Source: a virus. From it: 12,896 nt of DNA. Location: UHGV virus genome UHGV-0181219, one strand, 5' to 3'. Shown in pieces: positions 1 to 9,005 of this stretch. Numbering within the stretch: the first letter of the stretch is position 1; each line of letters starts with the position of its first letter. The notes under the pieces were generated by a model that saw only the letters and a list, made by a program, of their open reading frames with translations, had not been told where the DNA came from and made no database searches. Both the position numbers and the translations under genes were made by a program.

Positions 1-94
1 ATCCAAACTCAATATCCAGTGCATCAAAAAGCCAAAGCGGCGTTTGCCAGCAGTCTCTAACTTCTTTTGGTGTTTCTGATTTATGCTTAATCAT
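1..94 (-). CDS. Phage DNA N6-adenine methyltransferase-like protein, N-terminal fragment (gene continues past the window start)
   Basis: Minus-strand ATG at 92-94 overlaps the TGA stop of the HNH gene (ATGA). Translation MIKHKSETPKEVRDCWQTPLWLFDALDIEFG carries a W-x-TP-x-WLF motif that I recall from phage Dam-type methyltransferases. Only 31 codons are visible, so the call is tentative. Confidence 0.4.
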   Translation of the reverse strand, partial: MIKHKSETPKEVRDCWQTPLWLFDALDIEFG

Positions 95-618
95 ACAACC
101 TTCGCATATTGTCCGTGATATTTGTTGATAGCCTCACTGGCAACCAAACAAGCAAGTTCAAGATCTTCATAGAGCCCAAAATACAACCGGCCAAAATCTG
201 TGCGCACTTGAACGGCCCATTTATTTTTTTGCTTGTTCCATAAAACATTTTTTATTCCAGAACGGCTATTGCACTTAGTTTTCTGATTTCGGCTGTTTGC
301 TATCCGGCTTGCCTCCCTAAGATTTTTTGGGGAATTGTCCAGCCTGTTTCCGTTAATATGGTCAATATTTTTCAATGGCATTCTTTTGTTGTGCAGCGCA
401 AAAACAACTACGTGAACAAACATCTGAATGCCTGCAAAACACACCTGTCTATACCCAGATCCATTTATCGATGTTTTAATTTCATCTCCTGCCCGGTGGC
501 TGTGGTTGGGGTGTTTTAGCGAGTCCTTTTTGTATCTGACTGTATCTCCGTCTAAATACAGATAATCCTCAATAAGCCGATACCTATCTGACGCCGGCGT
601 ATTTGATTTGATAGTCAT
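91..618 (-). CDS. HNH homing endonuclease with a C-terminal AP2-type DNA-binding domain
   Basis: Track ORF 91..678 trimmed to the ATG at 616-618, which overlaps the ninB stop (ATGA). Product MTIKSN...YRLIEDYLYLDGDTVRYKK...IDHINGNRLDNSPKNLREASRIANSRN...NKWAVQVRTDFGRLYFGLYEDLELA shows the HNH_3 pattern (H-x-N-G-N...N-L) followed by an AP2-like segment. Confidence 0.8.
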   Translation of the reverse strand: MTIKSNTPASDRYRLIEDYLYLDGDTVRYKKDSLKHPNHSHRAGDEIKTSINGSGYRQVCFAGIQMFVHVVVFALHNKRMPLKNIDHINGNRLDNSPKNLREASRIANSRNQKTKCNSRSGIKNVLWNKQKNKWAVQVRTDFGRLYFGLYEDLELACLVASEAINKYHGQYAKVV

Positions 619-1055
619 GCAGCCCGATCTCCCCATCGCGCTTTCCATTCGAGAGCCAGTCGCGCTTCGTCTGACCACTTAACGCCACGCTCTGTACCGA
701 ATGCCTGTATAAGCTCTAATAGCTCCGCAAATTCGCTTACACGCATCCTGCTGGTTGACTGGCCTATTACCACAAAGCCATTCCCGGCAAGGTTAGGAAC
801 AACATCCTGCTGCTTTAATGCTGCGGTAAACACACACTTCCAGCTTTCTGCATCCAGCCAGCGACCATGCCATTCAACCTGACGAGAGACGTCACCTAAG
901 CAGGCCCATAGCTTCCTGTTTTGGTCTAAGCTGCGGTTGCGTTCCTGAATGGTTACTACGATTGGTTTGGTTGGGTCTGGAAGGATTTGCTGTACTGCGT
1001 GAATAGCGTTTTGCTGATGTGCTGGAGATCGAATTTCAAAGGTTAGTTTTTTCAT
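615..1055 (-). CDS. ninB: NinB (Orf-family recombination mediator)
   Basis: 146-aa product MKKLTFEIRSPAHQQNAIHAVQQILPDPTKPIVVTIQERNRSLDQNRKLWACLGDV... is near-identical over its length to lambda NinB as I recall it. Confidence 0.9.
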   Translation of the reverse strand: MKKLTFEIRSPAHQQNAIHAVQQILPDPTKPIVVTIQERNRSLDQNRKLWACLGDVSRQVEWHGRWLDAESWKCVFTAALKQQDVVPNLAGNGFVVIGQSTSRMRVSEFAELLELIQAFGTERGVKWSDEARLALEWKARWGDRAA

Positions 1056-1248
1056 GACTTCCCTCTCTAACAGATTTCAGGTTATTCCACTCCGTTACCG
1101 CACTGCGATAATTCGCGGCCGCCACAACAGCGTGGTTAGCGCAGTAGATTTGGCACCCGTTCTCCATGTCGAATATTGTCGGTGATTTTCCGCACTTACA
1201 TTTTTTGGCACGCGGTGCGTCTGAACACATTCCGTTAACGGTGTCCAT
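1036..1248 (-). CDS. Small Cys-rich hypothetical protein (possible zinc ribbon)
   Basis: 70-aa ORF with a strong SD (AGGGGGA) 5 nt upstream of the ATG on the minus strand. Cys pattern C-x9-CKCG...C-x3-C. Its 3' end overlaps the ninB start by 20 nt. Confidence 0.5.
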   Translation of the reverse strand: MDTVNGMCSDAPRAKKCKCGKSPTIFDMENGCQIYCANHAVVAAANYRSAVTEWNNLKSVREGSHEKTNL

Positions 1249-1274
1249 CAGGATCCCCCTCGTTCTTAATCCAA

Positions 1275-1302
1275 TAAAAAAGGGCTACTGTGTAAATAGC
1301 CC
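1275..1302 (-). terminator. Rho-independent terminator between ren and the nin genes (tR2-like)
   Basis: Stem GGGCTA/TAGCCC (1282-1287 and 1297-1302) with a 9-nt loop. The plus-strand A-run at 1275-1281 is a U-run after the hairpin on the minus-strand transcript. Confidence 0.5.
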
Positions 1303-1329: not shown

Positions 1330-1620
1330 TCATTGCCTTACCTCCATAAGCGCCCTATTAATAAACGCCGTCATTGGATTTGCACATCCCCACCCCGTAC
1401 CATCTGGATTTCTTTTAATTGGCTCCTTCTTCACTTTGCGTTTTGCATAAATAACCGTCTTCCACTTACGCTCAACAACACTCAAATGCCCTTGTTTCAC
1501 CATATGCCTTGCTGCTTGAGCGATTCTGTTATTTGGTATTCCGGTAATCAGTGCTAATTCATGTGGGGAGAATTGTTCATGAGTTTTCAGATATTCCAGG
1601 ATGATTTCTTTTCCAGTCAC
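1330..1620 (-). CDS. ren: Ren-like protein (winged-helix)
   Basis: 96-aa product MTGKEIILEYLKTHEQFSPHELALITGIPNNRIAQAARHM... matches the N-terminus and overall pattern of lambda Ren as recalled. Lies immediately after the DnaC-like gene with an ATGA overlap. Confidence 0.55.
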   Translation of the reverse strand: MTGKEIILEYLKTHEQFSPHELALITGIPNNRIAQAARHMVKQGHLSVVERKWKTVIYAKRKVKKEPIKRNPDGTGWGCANPMTAFINRALMEVRQ

Positions 1621-2462
1621 GATCTGCTCCTGTAACTATCCCATGTAAACGCAAGGGTGCATCCGCCGCCATCATTCATCCTGTCAATAACACGCTCACC
1701 AATGAATGCAGACAGTTCATCTTTGCTCTGGTTGCTAATCAGGATTGTTGGCTTCATGCGCTCGTAGCGGGTGTTGATGATTTCGAACATGATCATCTTT
1801 TCCGCCTCGCTTCCAAACTGCACACCAACCTCATCGATAATTAGCAGGTCAGGTTTAGTGAACTGTCGGATCACTTCATCCTCTGTGCGGGTGGAGTTTT
1901 TCGACCATGTTGATTTATATTCTCTGGCAATTTTCAGCGCCGTTGTGAAAATAGCTGAGCTTTGATGTTCCGTAATTGCGTGCCGGGCGATAGCCAGTGC
2001 AAGATGATTCTTTCCAGTACCAGGCTTTCCACACATAACCAGCCCACCGCCTTTCTGTAACCTCTCAGGCCATTTGCTGGCGTATGCCTGACACACTCTG
2101 AGCACTCTCTTTGCATCGTCGTTGACTGGCTCGTAGTTCTGTAGTGTGCAACCCTTGAATCGTTCAGGAATATCAAGATTATTCAACAGAAACTCGACAT
2201 TGCGCTTACGTGATTCCTCGTCGATTTTAATCTTCTCTGCCTGTAGCCGAATAAGCTCATCTCTCATGCATTCCGGGCATTCGCTAGGTCTTGAGGCAAA
2301 CTTAATTGGCCCAGTCGAGTAACGGTTACGCTGCTCAAACTCACCATGTTTTTCACAGATGCCAGTGCCAATTTCTACAGCTGTATGCTCGATAGCAATT
2401 GGCGGAGAACTCAATTCTGCAAGTTTTTTCTCCAGTTGGGAGATCTTTTCATCCAGCGTCAT
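1617..2462 (-). CDS. DnaC-like helicase loader (AAA+ ATPase)
   Basis: Walker A GKPGTGKNHLALAIA and Walker B LLIIDEVG are present, with an N-terminal Cys-rich region (CEKHG...CPEC) typical of DnaC/IstB-type phage replication proteins. Start moved to the ATG at 2460-2462 (MTLDEKISQ...), 2 nt after the O-like stop. Confidence 0.85.
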   Translation of the reverse strand: MTLDEKISQLEKKLAELSSPPIAIEHTAVEIGTGICEKHGEFEQRNRYSTGPIKFASRPSECPECMRDELIRLQAEKIKIDEESRKRNVEFLLNNLDIPERFKGCTLQNYEPVNDDAKRVLRVCQAYASKWPERLQKGGGLVMCGKPGTGKNHLALAIARHAITEHQSSAIFTTALKIAREYKSTWSKNSTRTEDEVIRQFTKPDLLIIDEVGVQFGSEAEKMIMFEIINTRYERMKPTILISNQSKDELSAFIGERVIDRMNDGGGCTLAFTWDSYRSRS

Positions 2463-2464
2463 GT

Positions 2465-3352
2465 TCACTCCTGCGCCCATGAAGGCATTTCAGTTTGTCC
2501 GTAATCTTTGGTGGCAAAGTTTTCAGCCTTAAGTCCATTAGCAACCTTGCGTACCGGTCTGGATAACGCCTGCTTGTTCTGGTAGCTGAGTTTCTGGCTG
2601 GCAGTGATAAACCAGTTCTTTGGCTTCTCATGGCTAAATTCGATATCCAGCCTTTCCAGTTCGTAATTCAGGTCAATGTTCGGATACAGGCGCTTCCATG
2701 CTTCGTAGTCCTTGTGGTTTAACCGAACGATATTTCCTTCGAATGCATAGCGACTTGAAATTTTATGGACATCAGCCCCACCCCCTTCACAAGTCGCGTC
2801 AGCGGCTTGGGTGTTAGAAAGGGAATCAGGAATCAGGTTAAGGGAATCAGGAATCAGGTTAAGGGAATCAGCAGGATTTAAACTGTTCTCTACTGGTTCT
2901 TGCACTGTACTTGCATGGTGCTTTTCTGGTTCTTCATTGTTTTCAATGATTTGTAGTGATTCGGCATTCTCCTTCTCTTCCTCTTTATCGTCCTTGCACT
3001 GTACTTGCATGGTGCTGTTATTGTTCTCTACTGGTTCTGGTATCTCACTGGCTGCTTCTTTGCAGTGAGGGTTCTGGTGCTTTTTCCAGTTATTGATTTG
3101 GATATATGAGCCGCCATTTACCTGATATCGGTTGATGAATTTGTGACTGTGAAGCTGCTGAAGCAGATCATTGCAGTCCACATCATCGAAAGGCAGTACC
3201 ATTGCTTTAATTTTCTTTGGGCGATCATCCAACCGCCCTTCTTTGTCAGCAATAGTCCATAACCCGGCAAAAAGGAGACGGGCATATGGAGAACACTCAG
3301 CTAATTCATCATTGGTGAAAAAGCCTGGTTTGATATTTCTTGAACGTGCCAT
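2465..3352 (-). CDS. Replication initiator / replisome organiser (O-like), with a C-terminal region resembling a DnaT-like domain
   Basis: Start set at the ATG at 3350-3352 (MARSRNIKPGFFTNDELAECSPYARLLFAGLW...), preceded by AAGGTGG. The acidic repeat-containing linker (DSLNLIPDSLNLIPDSL) is encoded by the iterons. The C-terminus (...ELERLDIEFSHEKPKNW...ASQKLSYQNK) loosely resembles the DnaT C-terminus from memory. Confidence 0.75.
   Translation of the reverse strand: MARSRNIKPGFFTNDELAECSPYARLLFAGLWTIADKEGRLDDRPKKIKAMVLPFDDVDCNDLLQQLHSHKFINRYQVNGGSYIQINNWKKHQNPHCKEAASEIPEPVENNNSTMQVQCKDDKEEEKENAESLQIIENNEEPEKHHASTVQEPVENSLNPADSLNLIPDSLNLIPDSLSNTQAADATCEGGGADVHKISSRYAFEGNIVRLNHKDYEAWKRLYPNIDLNYELERLDIEFSHEKPKNWFITASQKLSYQNKQALSRPVRKVANGLKAENFATKDYGQTEMPSWAQE
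2821..3037. repeat. Iteron-type direct repeats inside the O-like gene; putative phage replication origin
   Basis: GGGAATCAGGAATCAGGTTAA occurs in tandem at 2821-2841 and 2842-2862, with a partial third copy from 2863. CTTGCACTGTACTTGCATGGTGCT occurs at 2899-2922 and 2993-3016. TGTTCTCTACTGGTTC occurs at 2884-2899 and 3022-3037. Confidence 0.6.
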
Positions 3353-3363
3353 TTTGTCCACCT

Positions 3364-4164
3364 TTAGTACGGGAGTTCTTCCTGAGCTTCACGAATGCGT
3401 TCAGATACCCACTCCTTGAACGTTGTCCAGTTAGGTACTGTTTTCGCAAACTCAGTAAGTTCATCGAGATCTAAGTCGTATGAAAGCCATGCCTTGAGAT
3501 AACTCATTACATGGTTTTGATTGATATATATGCGGTTTTTAAGGATTCCTCTGATGTATAGAATCCTTTGTTCTTTTGGCGGTTTTCTTTTTGTCGCTGC
3601 TATGCGAGGGATGTACTCAAAGAATTCACCAGTAAGCTCATGGGTTATTTCTTGGGTGAGTTTTTTGTCTGCAGCAATCTCAATCGCATCGAGTATTTCT
3701 TCAAGCTTATATATTCGAAGCCATCTCTTGATAGATTTTCGCCCATTGTCATTAACAGTAAATGGCGCAATGCAGTCGTCAATTTTGGTAGCGACAATAT
3801 CAACAACATCGTCTTTCAGGCTCTTAAGACCATCTCGCCACTTGATCATCATCTCCAGTTGCTCTCGCTTGGTATTAAGTTCCTGGAGTTGCTGCCTTTG
3901 CTTTTCCATTATTGAATTATCGCTGAGCAGTTTGTCTCTTTTCCCGCCATTACAACTATCGCAAGAAGTAATAAGGTTCATCATGTCGTTATCGCCACCC
4001 TTGCTAACTGGGTTGATATGGTCGACATGAAGGATGACGTCTGGCGCAGAACTCCCACAGTACTGGCATTTGAAGCCATCGCGCTTGAAAACCTCAAACC
4101 GTATTTTCTTGGTAATGCCGGAACGAATCTTTTTTACCTGGTCTGGTGTAGGTTTTTTTGCCAT
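3364..4164 (-). CDS. HNH endonuclease-domain protein with a C-terminal domain of unknown function
   Basis: Start set at the ATG at 4162-4164 (MAKKPTP...), which has GGAG 6 nt upstream. N-terminus has HNH signatures (CQYCGSS...HVDHINPVSKGG...NLITSCDSCN), then a coiled-coil-like stretch and about 150 aa that I do not recognise. Confidence 0.75.
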   Translation of the reverse strand: MAKKPTPDQVKKIRSGITKKIRFEVFKRDGFKCQYCGSSAPDVILHVDHINPVSKGGDNDMMNLITSCDSCNGGKRDKLLSDNSIMEKQRQQLQELNTKREQLEMMIKWRDGLKSLKDDVVDIVATKIDDCIAPFTVNDNGRKSIKRWLRIYKLEEILDAIEIAADKKLTQEITHELTGEFFEYIPRIAATKRKPPKEQRILYIRGILKNRIYINQNHVMSYLKAWLSYDLDLDELTEFAKTVPNWTTFKEWVSERIREAQEELPY

Positions 4165-4185
4165 AATTAACTCCATAGAAAGCAG

Positions 4186-4485
4186 TTAAAAATCCATCTG
4201 GATTTGTTCAGAACGCTCGGTCTTGCACACCGGGCGTTTTTTATTGGTGATTTCATCAAGCGCATACTTAAAAGCCCTGCTAATCGGACTGATGTCTGAT
4301 GCCATTCCGAAAGCACACAAGACCGAAGCAATAAATCTCCAGTCCGTTCTGCTTATCTTCGATTCATGACAGCCAATCATCTTTGCCAGACCGCGCTGTG
4401 TAAGCGTTGACAGGTTGATGAGTAAATCAGTTTCAGCGCGATCAATTTCTCGCTGTGTTGGCTTGCTGTAACTTGCTTGTGTCAT
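4186..4485 (-). CDS. cII: cII-type transcriptional activator
   Basis: C-terminus ...EITNKKRPVCKTERSEQIQMDF closely matches lambda CII (...ILTNKKRPAATERSEQIQMEF). An HTH region (TQRGLAKMIGCHESKISR) precedes it, and the position after cro and nutR fits. Confidence 0.85.
   Translation of the reverse strand: MTQASYSKPTQREIDRAETDLLINLSTLTQRGLAKMIGCHESKISRTDWRFIASVLCAFGMASDISPISRAFKYALDEITNKKRPVCKTERSEQIQMDF
4214..4242 (+). terminator. Plus-strand rho-independent terminator antisense to the 3' end of cII (OOP-like)
   Basis: 8-bp stem CGCTCGGT/ACCGGGCG (4214-4221 and 4229-4236, one G-U pair), 7-nt loop, then TTTTTT at 4237-4242. It sits inside the cII coding region on the opposite strand. Confidence 0.5.
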
Positions 4486-4622: not shown

Positions 4623-4850
4623 TTATGCAGCCAGAAGGTTCTTTTTGCTTATTTCAAGCATTTCGCTTGCTTGATATTTGCCACCAGAAATCTCTTCGAT
4701 TTTTGATGCGTATTTCGTTTTCCCAAAAAACTCAGTCTTAGGGAGGAAGCCGTTTTTGAGCCACTTATAGACAGCCCTTTCGCTAACTCCACAAGCCTTC
4801 GCAACTTCAGGGATGCCGACACCTTTAATCGGCTCATCAAGATTTTGCAT
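4623..4850 (-). CDS. cro: Cro-like HTH repressor
   Basis: Divergent from cI across an operator-rich spacer. The product has an HTH (GIPEVAKACGVSERAVYKWLKNG). Start set at the internal ATG (MQNLDEP...) so that a 78-bp divergent promoter region remains; the longer start at 4883 is possible. Confidence 0.6.
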   Translation of the reverse strand: MQNLDEPIKGVGIPEVAKACGVSERAVYKWLKNGFLPKTEFFGKTKYASKIEEISGGKYQASEMLEISKKNLLAA

Positions 4851-4865
4851 AGGGATATCCTTTTT

Positions 4866-4927
4866 CGTACTTTCAGTACGCATTATGATTGAACTGAAAG
4901 TTTTTGCAAGTGCTTTAGTATCGTACT
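4866..4927. promoter_or_regulatory. OR-like operator cluster with divergent PR/PRM region
   Basis: Near-palindrome CGTACTTTCAGTACG at 4866-4880. Its core ACTTTCAGT (4870-4878) recurs inverted as ACTGAAAGT at 4893-4901. A third palindrome AGTATCGTACT lies at 4917-4927. Centres are about 23-25 bp apart. Confidence 0.4.
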
Positions 4928-4928
4928 C

Positions 4929-5636
4929 ATGGTTCAGAATGAAAAAGTGCGCAAAGAATTCGCCCAGCGGCTAGCGCAAGCCTGTAAAGAAGCTGGTCTT
5001 GATGAACATGGTAGGGGAATGGCTATAGCCCGTGCCCTTTCTCTTTCGTCCAAAGGCGTTAGCAAATGGTTTAATGCTGAGTCTTTACCGCGTCAGGAAA
5101 AAATGAATGCGCTTGCGAAATTTCTAAACGTTGATGTTGTTTGGCTTCAGCACGGCACTTCGTTAAATGGAGCGAATGATGAAGATACTCTTTCATTTGT
5201 TGGCAAATTAAAAAAAGGGTTAGTGCGCGTGGTTGGTGAGGCAATTCTTGGTGTTGATGGTGCCATCGAGATGACCGAAGAGCGCGATGGGTGGCTCAAG
5301 ATTTATAGCGATGATCCAGATGCCTTTGGTCTTCGTGTGAAAGGAGACAGCATGTGGCCCAGAATAAAATCAGGAGAATATGTACTCATTGAGCCTAACA
5401 CCAAAGTATTCCCGGGTGATGAGGTGTTTGTCAGAACCGTTGAAGGACACAACATGATTAAGGTTCTTGGCTATGACAGAGATGGAGAATACCAATTTAC
5501 AAGCATTAACCAGGACCACAGGCCTATAACGTTGCCTTATCATCAAGTAGCAAAGGTGGAGTATGTGGCTGGTATTCTGAAGCAATCTCGCCATCTGGAT
5601 GACATCGAGGCAAGGGAGTGGCTGAAAAATTCGTGA
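4929..5636 (+). CDS. cI: cI-type prophage repressor (HTH plus LexA-like S24 autopeptidase)
   Basis: N-terminal HTH region and a C-terminal S24 signature (GDSMWPRIKSGEYVLIEP ... MIKVL). No SD precedes the ATG, consistent with a leaderless PRM transcript as in lambda cI. Confidence 0.85.
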   Translation: MVQNEKVRKEFAQRLAQACKEAGLDEHGRGMAIARALSLSSKGVSKWFNAESLPRQEKMNALAKFLNVDVVWLQHGTSLNGANDEDTLSFVGKLKKGLVRVVGEAILGVDGAIEMTEERDGWLKIYSDDPDAFGLRVKGDSMWPRIKSGEYVLIEPNTKVFPGDEVFVRTVEGHNMIKVLGYDRDGEYQFTSINQDHRPITLPYHQVAKVEYVAGILKQSRHLDDIEAREWLKNS

Positions 5637-5836: not shown

Positions 5837-6316
5837 ATGGATAAAATTAATTACCCACCCCTGTTTGAGCCAGGGTTCCATGACATGGATGAAGCTGGAT
5901 TAAAATCGTATTGTGTCGATTGCTTTCCTTCATCATCCAGGCGAGGCATGCTATACTGTAATTTTATACAGCTACTCGAATCTATTCGAGAATTATCTGC
6001 TCAATATGGCTGTTTTACAGAAATATGGGTTGATGGTTCATACACCACGTCTAAACCAGAGCCTGATGATATTGATATTTTGTTGGTATGTGACTATAGC
6101 AATATAAACTCAATACCTGTCATGCTTCGGGGCCGCGTCGATAATTTGCTTGACCGAAACTACATCAAACAAAACTACAAAATTGATGTCCTACTACTCA
6201 TGAAGAATTTAGATGACCCTAACTATGATTATGAGTACTGGCGTAGCTACTGGCGCGGTTGGTTTGGTTTTGATCGCAGTGAAAACCCGAAAGGGTTAGT
6301 GAGGATTTTTTTATGA
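5837..6316 (+). CDS. Minimal nucleotidyltransferase (pol-beta-fold, MNT/SMODS-like), first gene of the candidate defence cassette
   Basis: 159-aa product with the pol-beta NTase signature: helix RELSAQYG, then G67-S68, D78-I-D80 (DIDILLV) and D117 (KIDVLLL). Its stop overlaps the next start (ATGA at 6313-6316). Confidence 0.7.
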   Translation: MDKINYPPLFEPGFHDMDEAGLKSYCVDCFPSSSRRGMLYCNFIQLLESIRELSAQYGCFTEIWVDGSYTTSKPEPDDIDILLVCDYSNINSIPVMLRGRVDNLLDRNYIKQNYKIDVLLLMKNLDDPNYDYEYWRSYWRGWFGFDRSENPKGLVRIFL

Positions 6317-7245
6317 ATGATAAATCAATGTTTAAAAATTGCGATAAACGCATTGATTTCATTCAAAAAGAAGTCGATGCAATGAAGCAAAACAAAACCA
6401 GGTCCTTTGCTGACATGCTTCTTTATCGCTCCATGGATTCTCATCTGAGCGATTTGAAGGCCGAAAAATTAAAGCAAGATAGTCGGCACCCACTTATCGA
6501 TTTTTTTGAGCTGCGGCTGAAAGGCTCTGAGGTTGACTTTGGCTCTATTCCTTTAGAGCTGCTTGGGGCTATTTCAACAAATCTTGCAGCGCTAATACAA
6601 AGAGCAACACACAAAATTGCCTCAGGCAAGGACTCAAAAAAAGTTCCCTACGACGTGAAAAGCTCCTTAAACCTCAGGCTGGCTGATTTATCCCCTGGGT
6701 CTACAAAATTGGGCGTCACCTTCTCTACAGGAATAGCAGAATTAGTAGAAACAGTACCCAGCAAGGCTGTAAAAGGCATATTCGATTTGTTGTTAAGCGA
6801 TGACGACAACAACTTCATGAATCACGTCGCTGAAATTGGATACAATTCCACTGTAAGCCTTAAGAGAATCGTAGAGGAATGCGATAAACACAACTTAACA
6901 TTTGATGCAAGTTGGACCGGTCCATTTAGTAATGGCACCAAGGTGGCAACTATTGACTCCAATAAAATTAAGTACTTGGTGAGTAGACTTACATCAACCA
7001 TTTCATCCCCTCCCATTACTGAAACGGTTACAGGCGAACTGGTCGTTCTATCCAAATATGGGAAGCTGGAGCTTGATGTTGGTGGTGAACATTTAAAGGC
7101 TTCCTATCCGATTGAAATGCTAGATTTAATACAAAAAAAACACAAGGTCGGACAGATTGTTTCTCTTTTAGTGGAGACTACTGAGATTCACAATGATCGC
7201 ATAGGTCTGTACCGTAAAAACCATCTTGTTAAATCGGTTCTTTAA
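6313..7245 (+). CDS. Hypothetical 310-aa protein, partner of the nucleotidyltransferase
   Basis: GAGGA RBS 7 nt upstream, translationally coupled to the NTase gene. I recognise no family; no convincing transmembrane segment. An R39-x4-H44 motif near the N-terminus is noted without weight. Confidence 0.7.
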   Translation: MNDKSMFKNCDKRIDFIQKEVDAMKQNKTRSFADMLLYRSMDSHLSDLKAEKLKQDSRHPLIDFFELRLKGSEVDFGSIPLELLGAISTNLAALIQRATHKIASGKDSKKVPYDVKSSLNLRLADLSPGSTKLGVTFSTGIAELVETVPSKAVKGIFDLLLSDDDNNFMNHVAEIGYNSTVSLKRIVEECDKHNLTFDASWTGPFSNGTKVATIDSNKIKYLVSRLTSTISSPPITETVTGELVVLSKYGKLELDVGGEHLKASYPIEMLDLIQKKHKVGQIVSLLVETTEIHNDRIGLYRKNHLVKSVL

Positions 7246-8091: not shown

Positions 8092-8316
8092 ATGAATCAG
8101 ACATACATTCCATCATGCTTGAGAAATCTGCCAAAGCAGAAAGCAAAGCCCCGCAAGCAAGCCATAAAGGACGCTAAGGCAGAGGTTATTGATCAAGCAA
8201 TACAATTGCTCAGGGAGGAGTTAAGAAGTGGCAAGCTCGAAGGAATGATGATGCCCTATCAGCGCGGATATCTATCGGCGATTAGTAAGTTGGAAGTATT
8301 GAAGAGTGAATTATGA
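8092..8316 (+). CDS. Hypothetical early-left protein (74 aa)
   Basis: ATG at 8092-8094 with GAGGTAAG upstream. Stop overlaps the next start (ATGA at 8313-8316). No family recognised. Confidence 0.5.
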   Translation: MNQTYIPSCLRNLPKQKAKPRKQAIKDAKAEVIDQAIQLLREELRSGKLEGMMMPYQRGYLSAISKLEVLKSEL

Positions 8317-9005
8317 ACTATCTGGAATTTCCGGATGGTTCATTGTTTTGGCAGCAAACCACTTATTTGAGAGGAATTAATATGTCATCAATCCGCTTAA
8401 CTACGAGAATGAAAGAGAAAATCGCTCGTAACGCTTTAATTAAGTCTGGGGTTTTCGCTGAACTTGAAGAAGTAACAAAGTTAAAGAACCAGCTTGCACT
8501 TGACGCCAGAGTTATTGCGTTTGGCGGTAAAAAGAAAACTGAGGAAGTGGATCAGTTATCATCCAGGTTAGTAGCTATAAGTGAAGAACTTGAAAAGATG
8601 GGATGTTCATTTTACTCATGCGATGTTCGTTCTACTTCAATTTATCTGACTGTATCTGGCAGAAGGGTTGGATGGCTTTCATATGGGAAAGACGGCAACG
8701 GCGAAGATATATTGCTCCCTACTCCGACCAAAGATAAATGCATGTTTGACGCAGAACACGAAATAACAAAAAGGTTTGATGAAATCTGCGCATTGCAACA
8801 AAAACTTGAAGCCAAGAAAAAGGATATCGAATCAAATGTATGGGCTGCTTTGAACTCAGTCACAACAGTTAAGCGACTTATTGAAGTTTGGCCTGAAAGC
8901 AAAGAATTGCTACCAAAAGAAGCAGATAAAGCAAGTACAGCACTTCCTGCTTTACGGGTAGAAGATTTGAATAAGATGATTGGACTTCCTTCCGAGGCCG
9001 CATAG
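8313..9005 (+). CDS. Hypothetical early-left protein (230 aa)
   Basis: Long ORF coupled to the upstream gene. An alternative start at the ATG at 8382-8384 (MSSIRLT...) with a GAGG RBS is also plausible. No family recognised. Confidence 0.6.
   Translation: MNYLEFPDGSLFWQQTTYLRGINMSSIRLTTRMKEKIARNALIKSGVFAELEEVTKLKNQLALDARVIAFGGKKKTEEVDQLSSRLVAISEELEKMGCSFYSCDVRSTSIYLTVSGRRVGWLSYGKDGNGEDILLPTPTKDKCMFDAEHEITKRFDEICALQQKLEAKKKDIESNVWAALNSVTTVKRLIEVWPESKELLPKEADKASTALPALRVEDLNKMIGLPSEAA

Follow-up and report, generated by a model that had tools for sequence, protein, structure and literature searches.

Positions 56-592 of the window analysed here, the whole 12,896-nucleotide (nt) stretch of UHGV virus genome UHGV-0181219, are probably a free-standing HNH(HNH_3)-AP2 homing-endonuclease cassette lodged in the 5' end of a lambdoid prophage methylase gene of the Dam family (PF05869). 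By Pfam and PHROG annotation, the window is the immunity, replication and nin region of such a prophage. The original prediction, made from the letters alone, had described the open reading frame (ORF) at 91-618 as a selfish HNH-AP2 gene that had invaded the operon between ninB and a Dam-like methylase gene and remained expressed by coupling. Insertion and coupling are upheld, and a gene of the homing type is what the comparisons below point to; the placement between the two genes is not, since both breakpoints lie inside the Dam coding sequence, after its first 26 nt and before its DCW codons. The features concerned are as follows.

91-618, minus strand: HNH-AP2 endonuclease ORF, with ATG at 618-616 and TGA at 93-91, encoding 175 amino acids (aa)
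593-618, minus strand: captured Dam leader (ATGACTATCAAATCAAATACGCCGGC, MTIKSNTPA), that is, the native ATG plus 23 nt, identical to the empty alleles and now the N-terminus of the HNH ORF
56-592, minus strand: insert proper, 537 nt, which replaces 10 nt (ACACGACAAG) of the empty alleles
56-94, minus strand: surrogate Dam 5' end (MIKHKSETPKEVR, ATG plus 12 codons), with its ATG at 94-92 overlapping the HNH stop, which replaces the native MTIKSNTPAHDK
1-55, minus strand: resident Dam sequence resuming (DCWQTPLWLFDALDIEFG...), matched by Pfam Dam, with homology from GACTGCTGG, cut by the window edge
2-94, minus strand: first 31 codons of the Dam-family methylase as now read (Pfam PF05869, E=4e-7, above the gathering score), the window edge cutting the gene
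615-1055, minus strand: ninB, a lambda-type NinB/Orf recombination mediator of 146 aa (Pfam PF05772, E=1.1e-54; translation)

The breakpoints were placed by comparing the window base by base with two empty alleles, those of phage HK97 and Escherichia coli RM11911, with flanks 100% identical; the window ninB as a whole is 98-100% identical to ninB of HK97 and RM11911, and the window-type Dam body is 98.8% identical to the empty HK97 Dam. Homology to the empty alleles extends along ninB, through the ATGA and on for 26 nt (ATGACTATCAAATCAAATACGCCGGC), and resumes at GACTGCTGG, the D-C-W codons; in the empty alleles Dam starts MTIKSNTPA-HDKDCWQTP.... Because homology runs 26 nt into Dam, the HNH ORF starts with Dam's ATG and first nine codons and has no start of its own. 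In the structural model described below, residues 1-4 have a predicted local distance difference test (pLDDT) score below 50, so that the captured leader forms a disordered tail outside the fold.

At the other end of the insert, the surrogate 5' end joins the resident Dam at the conserved D-C-W-x-T-P codons. Counting the ATG, the cassette carries 13 Dam codons, or as many as 16 should the DCW codons be part of it as well. The GC content is 40.2% in the insert and 28% in the surrogate leader, compared with 50.1% in ninB and 52.6% in the Dam body; since 28% is so far from the Dam body value, the surrogate leader is compositionally part of the insert and not of Dam. The methylase gene is intact (176 aa), at the level of the ORF, in every filled or scarred locus with a complete gene (our locus labels begin with L; L003, a truncated prophage, as well as L021 and the window, where the sequence ends, were left out of this comparison).

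The ATGA overlaps reported at both ends of the ORF are indeed present. Read from the coding strand, the TCAT at 615-618 and that at 91-94 are both ATGA; they give 4-nt overlaps with the ninB stop and with the start of the Dam-family gene, respectively. Such overlaps are routine in phage operons. The two differ in origin, however: because the HNH ORF took over Dam's start, the upstream ATGA is the original ninB/Dam junction, whereas the downstream one comes from the element's own surrogate Dam 5' end. RefSeq/PGAP starts this Dam at an ATT codon (175 aa, IKHK...) and not at the ATG three bases upstream (window 89-94; also L005, L008 and L009), which is probably one codon short. Also at the surrogate Dam start, ATGATTAA supplies a stop in each of the two other frames, so that every frame read from upstream ends there.

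Empty sites are abundant among relatives. Of 50,697 phage records searched by megablast with window positions 1-1300, 326 match and none (0/326) covers the ORF; in HK97, HF4s, 434, mEp506 and many lambda-like phages, both flanks match but as two separate pieces, 527 nt being absent between them. Among 5,426 complete E. coli genomes, the ninB/Dam neighbourhood is found in 1,764, and the insert (at least 80% of it being scored as carriage) in 34, at 98.3-100% identity. Thus, alignment of the region with relatives that lack the insert, which had been proposed as a check, defines the insertion site, and the universal presence without empty alleles that was named as evidence to the contrary is not what these 34 carriers among 5,426 genomes display. 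A protein scan of species-representative genomes returned a single relative, 37% identical.

A second filled/empty pair was uncovered by protein search. The 5-kb contig L011 encodes a 76.7%-identical HNH protein (P0003) directly 5' of Dam, with an ATGA overlap, and here the upstream gene is DUF1367 and not ninB. The surrogate leader of L011 (MIKHKSQTPIESR) is 77% identical to that of the window, and the Dam bodies are only 49% identical. In relatives of the L011 Dam that are 94% and 91% identical to it (L044-L047), DUF1367 is followed directly by a Dam gene with the native N-terminus MTDKSNTPPEDKDRW. Nucleotide identity between L011 and L047 is 98% across 300 nt upstream and 96.7% across 450 nt downstream; it extends 14 nt beyond the ATG (ATGACCGACAAATC) and picks up again at the W-R-T-P codons (TGGCGCACCCC), 28 nt having been replaced. 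In both filled loci the HNH ORF has as its N-terminus the first codons of the resident Dam (MTIKSNTPA in the window, MTDKS in L011), and for each Dam type there are empty alleles with 94-99% identity to the filled one. A unit made up of the HNH body, its stop and a surrogate Dam leader has therefore entered two Dam subfamilies at the same place. Judged by identity, at about 77% for HNH and leader versus 49% for the Dam bodies, the histories of element and host gene appear to be incongruent.

The empty alleles of the two Dam types have CAAATCAAATAC[G/C]CC and TGGC..AC.CC in common around the site, and these shared stretches are a reasonable candidate for the recognition region. HNH relatives that are at most 50% identical lie in unrelated phage contexts (thioredoxin, tail genes, RusA), as expected for a homing-endonuclease family with diversified targets. 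As these contexts show, the association with Dam is confined to the clade of HNH proteins with at least 76% identity.

That association might instead mean that the nuclease and the methylase are partners, in a restriction-modification-like or self-protection pair in which Dam methylation shields the carrier's DNA. The genes are adjacent and translationally coupled, and HNH nucleases do occur in restriction-modification systems, the PADLOC matches to these being weak and confined to the other HNH gene of the window. However, Dam is the older resident, about 98% of its loci lack the HNH gene, the two are not co-inherited as a unit, and an HNH ORF fused to Dam's own start indicates insertion into Dam and not co-evolution with it. 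The replaced region has no GATC. The sole GATC nearby, 11 nt before the Dam ATG in the 3' end of lambda-type ninB, is missing where a diverged ninB allele (ninB', see below) stands upstream. Members of this Dam family reportedly methylate GATC, sites that the Dam of E. coli itself would already modify. The protein family is also of the homing type (HNH_3 plus AP2), with 'homing endonuclease' as the best PADLOC match of the 91-618 protein (E=5.8e-4). We consider such a partnership very improbable, and the earlier suggestion that proximity to a methyltransferase reflects target protection finds no support. The association of Dam with the HNH gene is explained if Dam is the target, and self-immunity is most simply put down to physical replacement of the target sequence.

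The distribution of the cassette across backgrounds, and the forms in which it is found, also bear on a homing origin. A near-identical cassette, always with the same Dam leader, stands behind at least four upstream genes: lambda-type ninB, the diverged ninB' (ending ...QRKGKAA and a stop), a third ninB variant, and a non-ninB gene with a GTG start. Among the 21 loci in which the HNH ORF could be read, 16 have the full 175 aa and one is a codon shorter; the other four are broken, one by a premature stop, one by a frameshift and two by insertion sequence (IS) truncation. In E. coli 503440 and 503829, the 5' end of the HNH gene is truncated by IS100 (IS21-family istA/istB; L010 1591-2924).

In six further E. 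coli genomes the surrogate Dam start is present without an HNH gene, and 6/6 keep 12-40 nt of the HNH 3' end, in three types of scar. In E2 and PK12 (L005 1537-1580 in E2), the remnant is a 14-codon mini-ORF (MTINKYHGQYVRVE and a stop) with ATGA overlaps at both ends that arose through deletion between copies of CTATCAA. In FDAARGOS_944 (L006 1537-1570), ninB' is fused to the last 29 nt of the HNH gene, and in E308, W444 and TW10590 (L007 1537-1550 in E308), ninB' ends in AGGGTTGAATGA. We considered whether the MIKHKSETPKEVR start could be the native Dam allele of ninB' phages, given that the E308 loci run from ninB' into Dam. This was rejected for three reasons: a synthetic junction of ninB' and native Dam is contiguous in 626 genomes, and native ninB' therefore ends KGKAA and a stop; the GRVE and stop (AGGGTTGAATGA) of E308 are the last HNH codons in the E2 and FDAARGOS scars; and the E308 form is derivable from the E2 form by a deletion between GAGGG repeats. 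The E308 junction is thus a scar and not ancestral. No Dam gene with the surrogate leader but without HNH sequence upstream was seen in the genomes examined. The series of filled, degenerate and scarred alleles is typical of a homing-gene cycle, except that loss here leaves an allele that lacks the target.

With regard to the protein, the identification as HNH-AP2 is borne out, directly for HNH_3 by Pfam and, for AP2, by way of homologues and the predicted fold. An identical protein is present in RefSeq (WP_052249892.1), where it is named 'HNH endonuclease signature motif containing protein'. Three regions can be distinguished.

421-594, minus strand: N-terminal helix and beta-hairpin region, residues ~9-66, from the secondary structure of the model and the homologue alignment, as in I-HmuI-type HNH enzymes
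289-420, minus strand: HNH_3 catalytic motif, residues 67-110, from Pfam and invariant alignment columns
106-258, minus strand: AP2-fold DNA-binding domain, residues ~121-171, three strands then a long helix, from the model and Foldseek

The HNH_3 (PF13392) match reaches 42.6 bits, the cut-off being 24.8 (E=4.6e-11), with residues 67-110 covering profile positions 2-46 of 46, and the protein matches PHROG 99, 'HNH endonuclease', at E=1.4e-43. Residues H69, D86, H87, N89, N99, N108 and N111 are invariant in an alignment of 30 homologues and are all kept here. In the H-N-N variant of the motif, the catalytic and metal-binding set consists of the His of the D-H dyad and Asn residues; individual roles for H69, D86, H87 and the Asn residues are assigned provisionally, by likeness to I-HmuI. 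PF00847 (AP2) was found in 15/30 of the aligned homologues over the same columns as the AP2 region here, with a best E of 1.5e-10.

Because a sequence search of the PDB with the 91-618 protein found nothing significant, we turned to fold comparison. The AlphaFold2 model of the 175-aa protein has a mean pLDDT of 89.9, and its AP2 unit consists of strands at 125-128, 133-140 and 143-150 followed by a helix at 153-171. This unit superposes on TEM1 from Arabidopsis (7ET5) with a root-mean-square deviation (rmsd) of 1.9 Å over 53 columns (Foldseek probability 1.0) and on AtERF1 (1GCC) with an rmsd of 2.1 Å over 57 columns (TMt 0.69). The top Foldseek match of the whole model in the PDB is I-HmuI (1U3E_M), with probability 1.00, E=1.5e-3 and 157 columns but a TM score of only 0.39, a low value probably due, in the model, to a differing orientation of the domains. 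Overall, with an HNH_3 match above cut-off, the invariant residues, I-HmuI as best structural match and an AP2 fold, the nuclease looks functional, as far as sequence and model can indicate.

An intron- or intein-encoded homing endonuclease was also considered. Across the window, nothing in Rfam scores at or above the gathering threshold, so no intron is indicated there, and since the HNH ORF ends in a stop and Dam restarts with its own ATG, there is nothing to splice; this candidate was rejected. Another reading would have the gene be a housekeeping packaging HNH of the terminase-associated, cos-cleaving type exemplified by HK97 gp74, placed in the nin region by chance. HNH proteins of this kind are described as common and essential packaging factors in HK97-like phages (PMC3592412). 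However, the gene lies in the early-right nin region and not beside a terminase, and its family is HNH_3 plus AP2 and not the zinc-binding HNH type PF01844. It is also dispensable, being absent from HK97 itself and from about 98% of relatives. These presence/absence data effectively refute the packaging reading, which we hold to be the least credible of those considered.

Several observations weigh against a homing cassette. On the side of the protein, PF00847 has no Pfam match on the 91-618 protein itself even at E<=10, and the Foldseek E-values are modest (1.5e-3 for I-HmuI, 0.06-0.2 for AP2 domains). On the side of distribution, a blastn search with the distant setting of the 50,697 phage records with the DNA of the HNH gene gave no match, and for this reason the comparison of empty and filled sites was made in E. 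coli prophages and IMG/VR. The cassette is infrequent, in about 2% of Dam-bearing loci. Several HNH-positive genomes have extra flank matches without the insert (6-7 places, versus 1-2 with it); as these empty flank copies remain, no conversion is evident in lysogens, although repression of the operon is to be expected there. Across contexts, identity is ~98-100% for the cassette and for the HK97-type Dam body alike, so that spread among ninB backgrounds within E. coli could be ordinary shuffling of lambdoid modules. Finally, cleavage, the cut site and biased inheritance are all inferred.

Some of these points would be accommodated by a passive passenger, a moron-like module that spread by ordinary homologous or illegitimate recombination in the nin region and whose nuclease is inactive or used for competition with co-infecting phages, exclusion or a general stimulation of recombination. 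Regions of this kind are highly mosaic, the cassette stands behind at least four upstream genes with the homology break at a gene boundary, and a rare cassette whose empty copies may coexist with it in the same genomes is in keeping with passive carriage. Nuclease genes are moreover known at boundaries of genetic exchange (PMC10448857). What argues against a passenger is the homologous position, within the first codons and ending at W-x-T-P, in two Dam subfamilies only 49% identical, each with near-identical empty alleles; without site-specific targeting, the same position in two such diverged subfamilies is hard to account for. The catalytic residues are, in addition, all conserved. We therefore regard passive carriage as unlikely, although less so than the partnership with Dam or the packaging role, and retain the homing cassette as the preferred reading.

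A homing cassette of this design could work as follows. Since the HNH ORF is fused in frame to Dam's native ATG, it inherits both the coupling to ninB and early-right transcription from pR; it follows from this position that the HNH gene would be expressed from pR in lytic growth through the ninB-Dam coupling, and that translation of Dam would now depend on termination and reinitiation at the ATGA of the cassette, a weak GAAGG lying 4 nt before it. On induction or in a mixed infection, the protein would bind the uninterrupted Dam 5' region through its AP2 domain and nick or cut it, the predicted position in the empty allele being near ...CAAATCAAATACGCCGGCACACGACAAGGACTGCTGG.... I-HmuI-type HNH_3 enzymes are nickases, and by analogy this suggests a nickase here. 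Recombinational repair from a cassette-bearing genome would then copy the cassette in, one crossover falling within the Dam leader and the other at or downstream of the DCW/W-x-TP codons. Immunity of the carrier would follow, the sequence between the crossovers being replaced and the surrogate leader recoded. Copies decay by stop codons, frameshifts and IS insertion, and in some cases deletions between short repeats leave the surrogate Dam start as a scar.

More tentatively, and at a confidence somewhat short of even, the nin-region HNH-AP2 elements could constitute a distinct class of 'start-capturing' cassettes, which integrate within the opening codons of a host gene, capture its start and coupling and carry a recoded surrogate 5' end for it. 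The two Dam subfamilies and, in E. coli E200086, ninB (see below) are where this design is found. If this is true, the design would keep the host gene functional while making its translation dependent on the cassette, which would favour retention. It would also destroy the target, and imprecise loss would leave a permanently resistant scar allele with no target regenerated.

The remaining annotated genes on the minus strand of the window, all in the early-right operon, are the following.

4623-4883, minus strand: cro
4186-4485, minus strand: cII
2465-3361, minus strand: O-like gene
1617-2480, minus strand: DnaC/IstB-like loader
1330-1620, minus strand: Ren/MarR-like gene
1036-1248, minus strand: PHROG-6308 gene

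On the plus strand, cI (S24 peptidase plus helix-turn-helix; 4929-5636) is followed by N, an Nmad5 protein and RecT. A second HNH gene, unrelated to the one at 91-618, lies on the minus strand between cII and the O-like gene (3364-4176, 270 aa) and has an N-terminal Pfam HNH match (PF01844/HNH_5) and a match to PHROG 16986. This segment is common to Stx1a phage Stx1_121427 and phages Louie and Dewey, and most other phages match the cII flank only; from this pattern, the gene may be another optional insertion. Just 3' of cI, at the position of lambda rexAB, two plus-strand genes (5837-7245) correspond to PDC-M63, a candidate defence system in PADLOC (M63A, E=1.8e-41, also Pfam DUF6932; M63B, E=7.5e-45), and the pair is likely a prophage-borne anti-phage moron. 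The Nmad5 protein (nucleotide-modification-associated domain 5, E=7.9e-71) is encoded at 8313-9005 on the plus strand, in the early-left operon between N and RecT.

Two more HNH insertions are found in the same nin region of E. coli E200086 (L004, NZ_CM128605.1), at 314-1029 and 2615-3632. One joins an HNH ORF to native ninB codons 1-32, and this ORF is followed by ninB with a recoded N-terminus of 35 codons (MKCVKYHLTNESIRYNAIQYLRTCDLDIIVEFKQ...); this ninB-capturing ORF is now broken in two. In the other, an HNH gene sits in the 3' part of ninF, and NinF gains a new C-terminus while the native C-terminal fragment is left downstream. Start capture may thus be a general design in nin regions.

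The Dam cassette provides a natural series of filled, empty and scarred alleles for a free-standing HNH-AP2 endonuclease in the best-studied group of temperate phages. HK97, 434 and phi80-type phages are ready recipients with empty sites, and homing in temperate phages is therefore testable by standard E. coli genetics. The architecture illustrates how a homing gene could enter a coding region without intron, intein or protein splitting, and the resistant alleles that loss of the element can leave bear on the life cycle of homing genes and on lambdoid mosaic boundaries.

HNH with AP2 is a recognised class of homing endonuclease (Magnani, Sjolander & Hake 2004, as cited in PMC10448857). Members described from phages, cyanobacteria and protists, among them 'IPA-HNH' of ICP1 phages, share with our element the HNH(_3) motif with a C-terminal AP2 domain, a length of ~170 aa, a free-standing gene and presence/absence polymorphism; none of those described is reported at Dam or in a lambdoid nin region, whereas the present gene lacks a start of its own and brings a replacement host 5' end. 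I-HmuI of Bacillus phage SPO1 (1U3E), the best structural match, has a motif of the HNH_3 type with Asn for the last His, but its gene lies within a group I intron and its C-terminus is a helix-turn-helix, where the protein of the window has AP2, no intron, and a surrogate start in place of splicing.

In other respects the cassette resembles elements of T4-like phages. Like it, mobE in Aeh1 nrdA and mobA in T4 gene 60 are free-standing HNH genes within a coding region, without intron or intein and on the polycistronic message of the host (PMC2988022). They split the host protein into two functional polypeptides, whereas here the host protein stays whole, since only its first 9-12 codons are detached and a recoded copy takes their place. 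In the T4 seg and mob genes, embedded expression signals of host genes favour retention, and the present cassette resembles them in that the signals of the downstream host gene lie within the endonuclease gene (PMC2988022). Start capture has a counterpart in gene 31 of phage epsilon34, in which a resident N-terminus is fused in frame to an HNH homing endonuclease, but this belongs to the early-left operon and to another HNH lineage, with no surrogate 5' end described (PMC2629481). An HNH homing element within a phage methylase gene that apparently stays functional is known from ShiLan in actinophage DNA methylase genes (PMC11855218); ShiLan, however, is read through in frame, its HNH hidden in another frame in mid-gene, while ours forms a cistron of its own at the extreme 5' end of a methylase gene from the unrelated family PF05869. 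We did not find the complete design, that is, start capture, a recoded surrogate 5' end and matching empty and scar alleles, described at this locus. Overall, the cassette is a neat and partly novel architecture within a known kind of mobile element, and no new kind of system.

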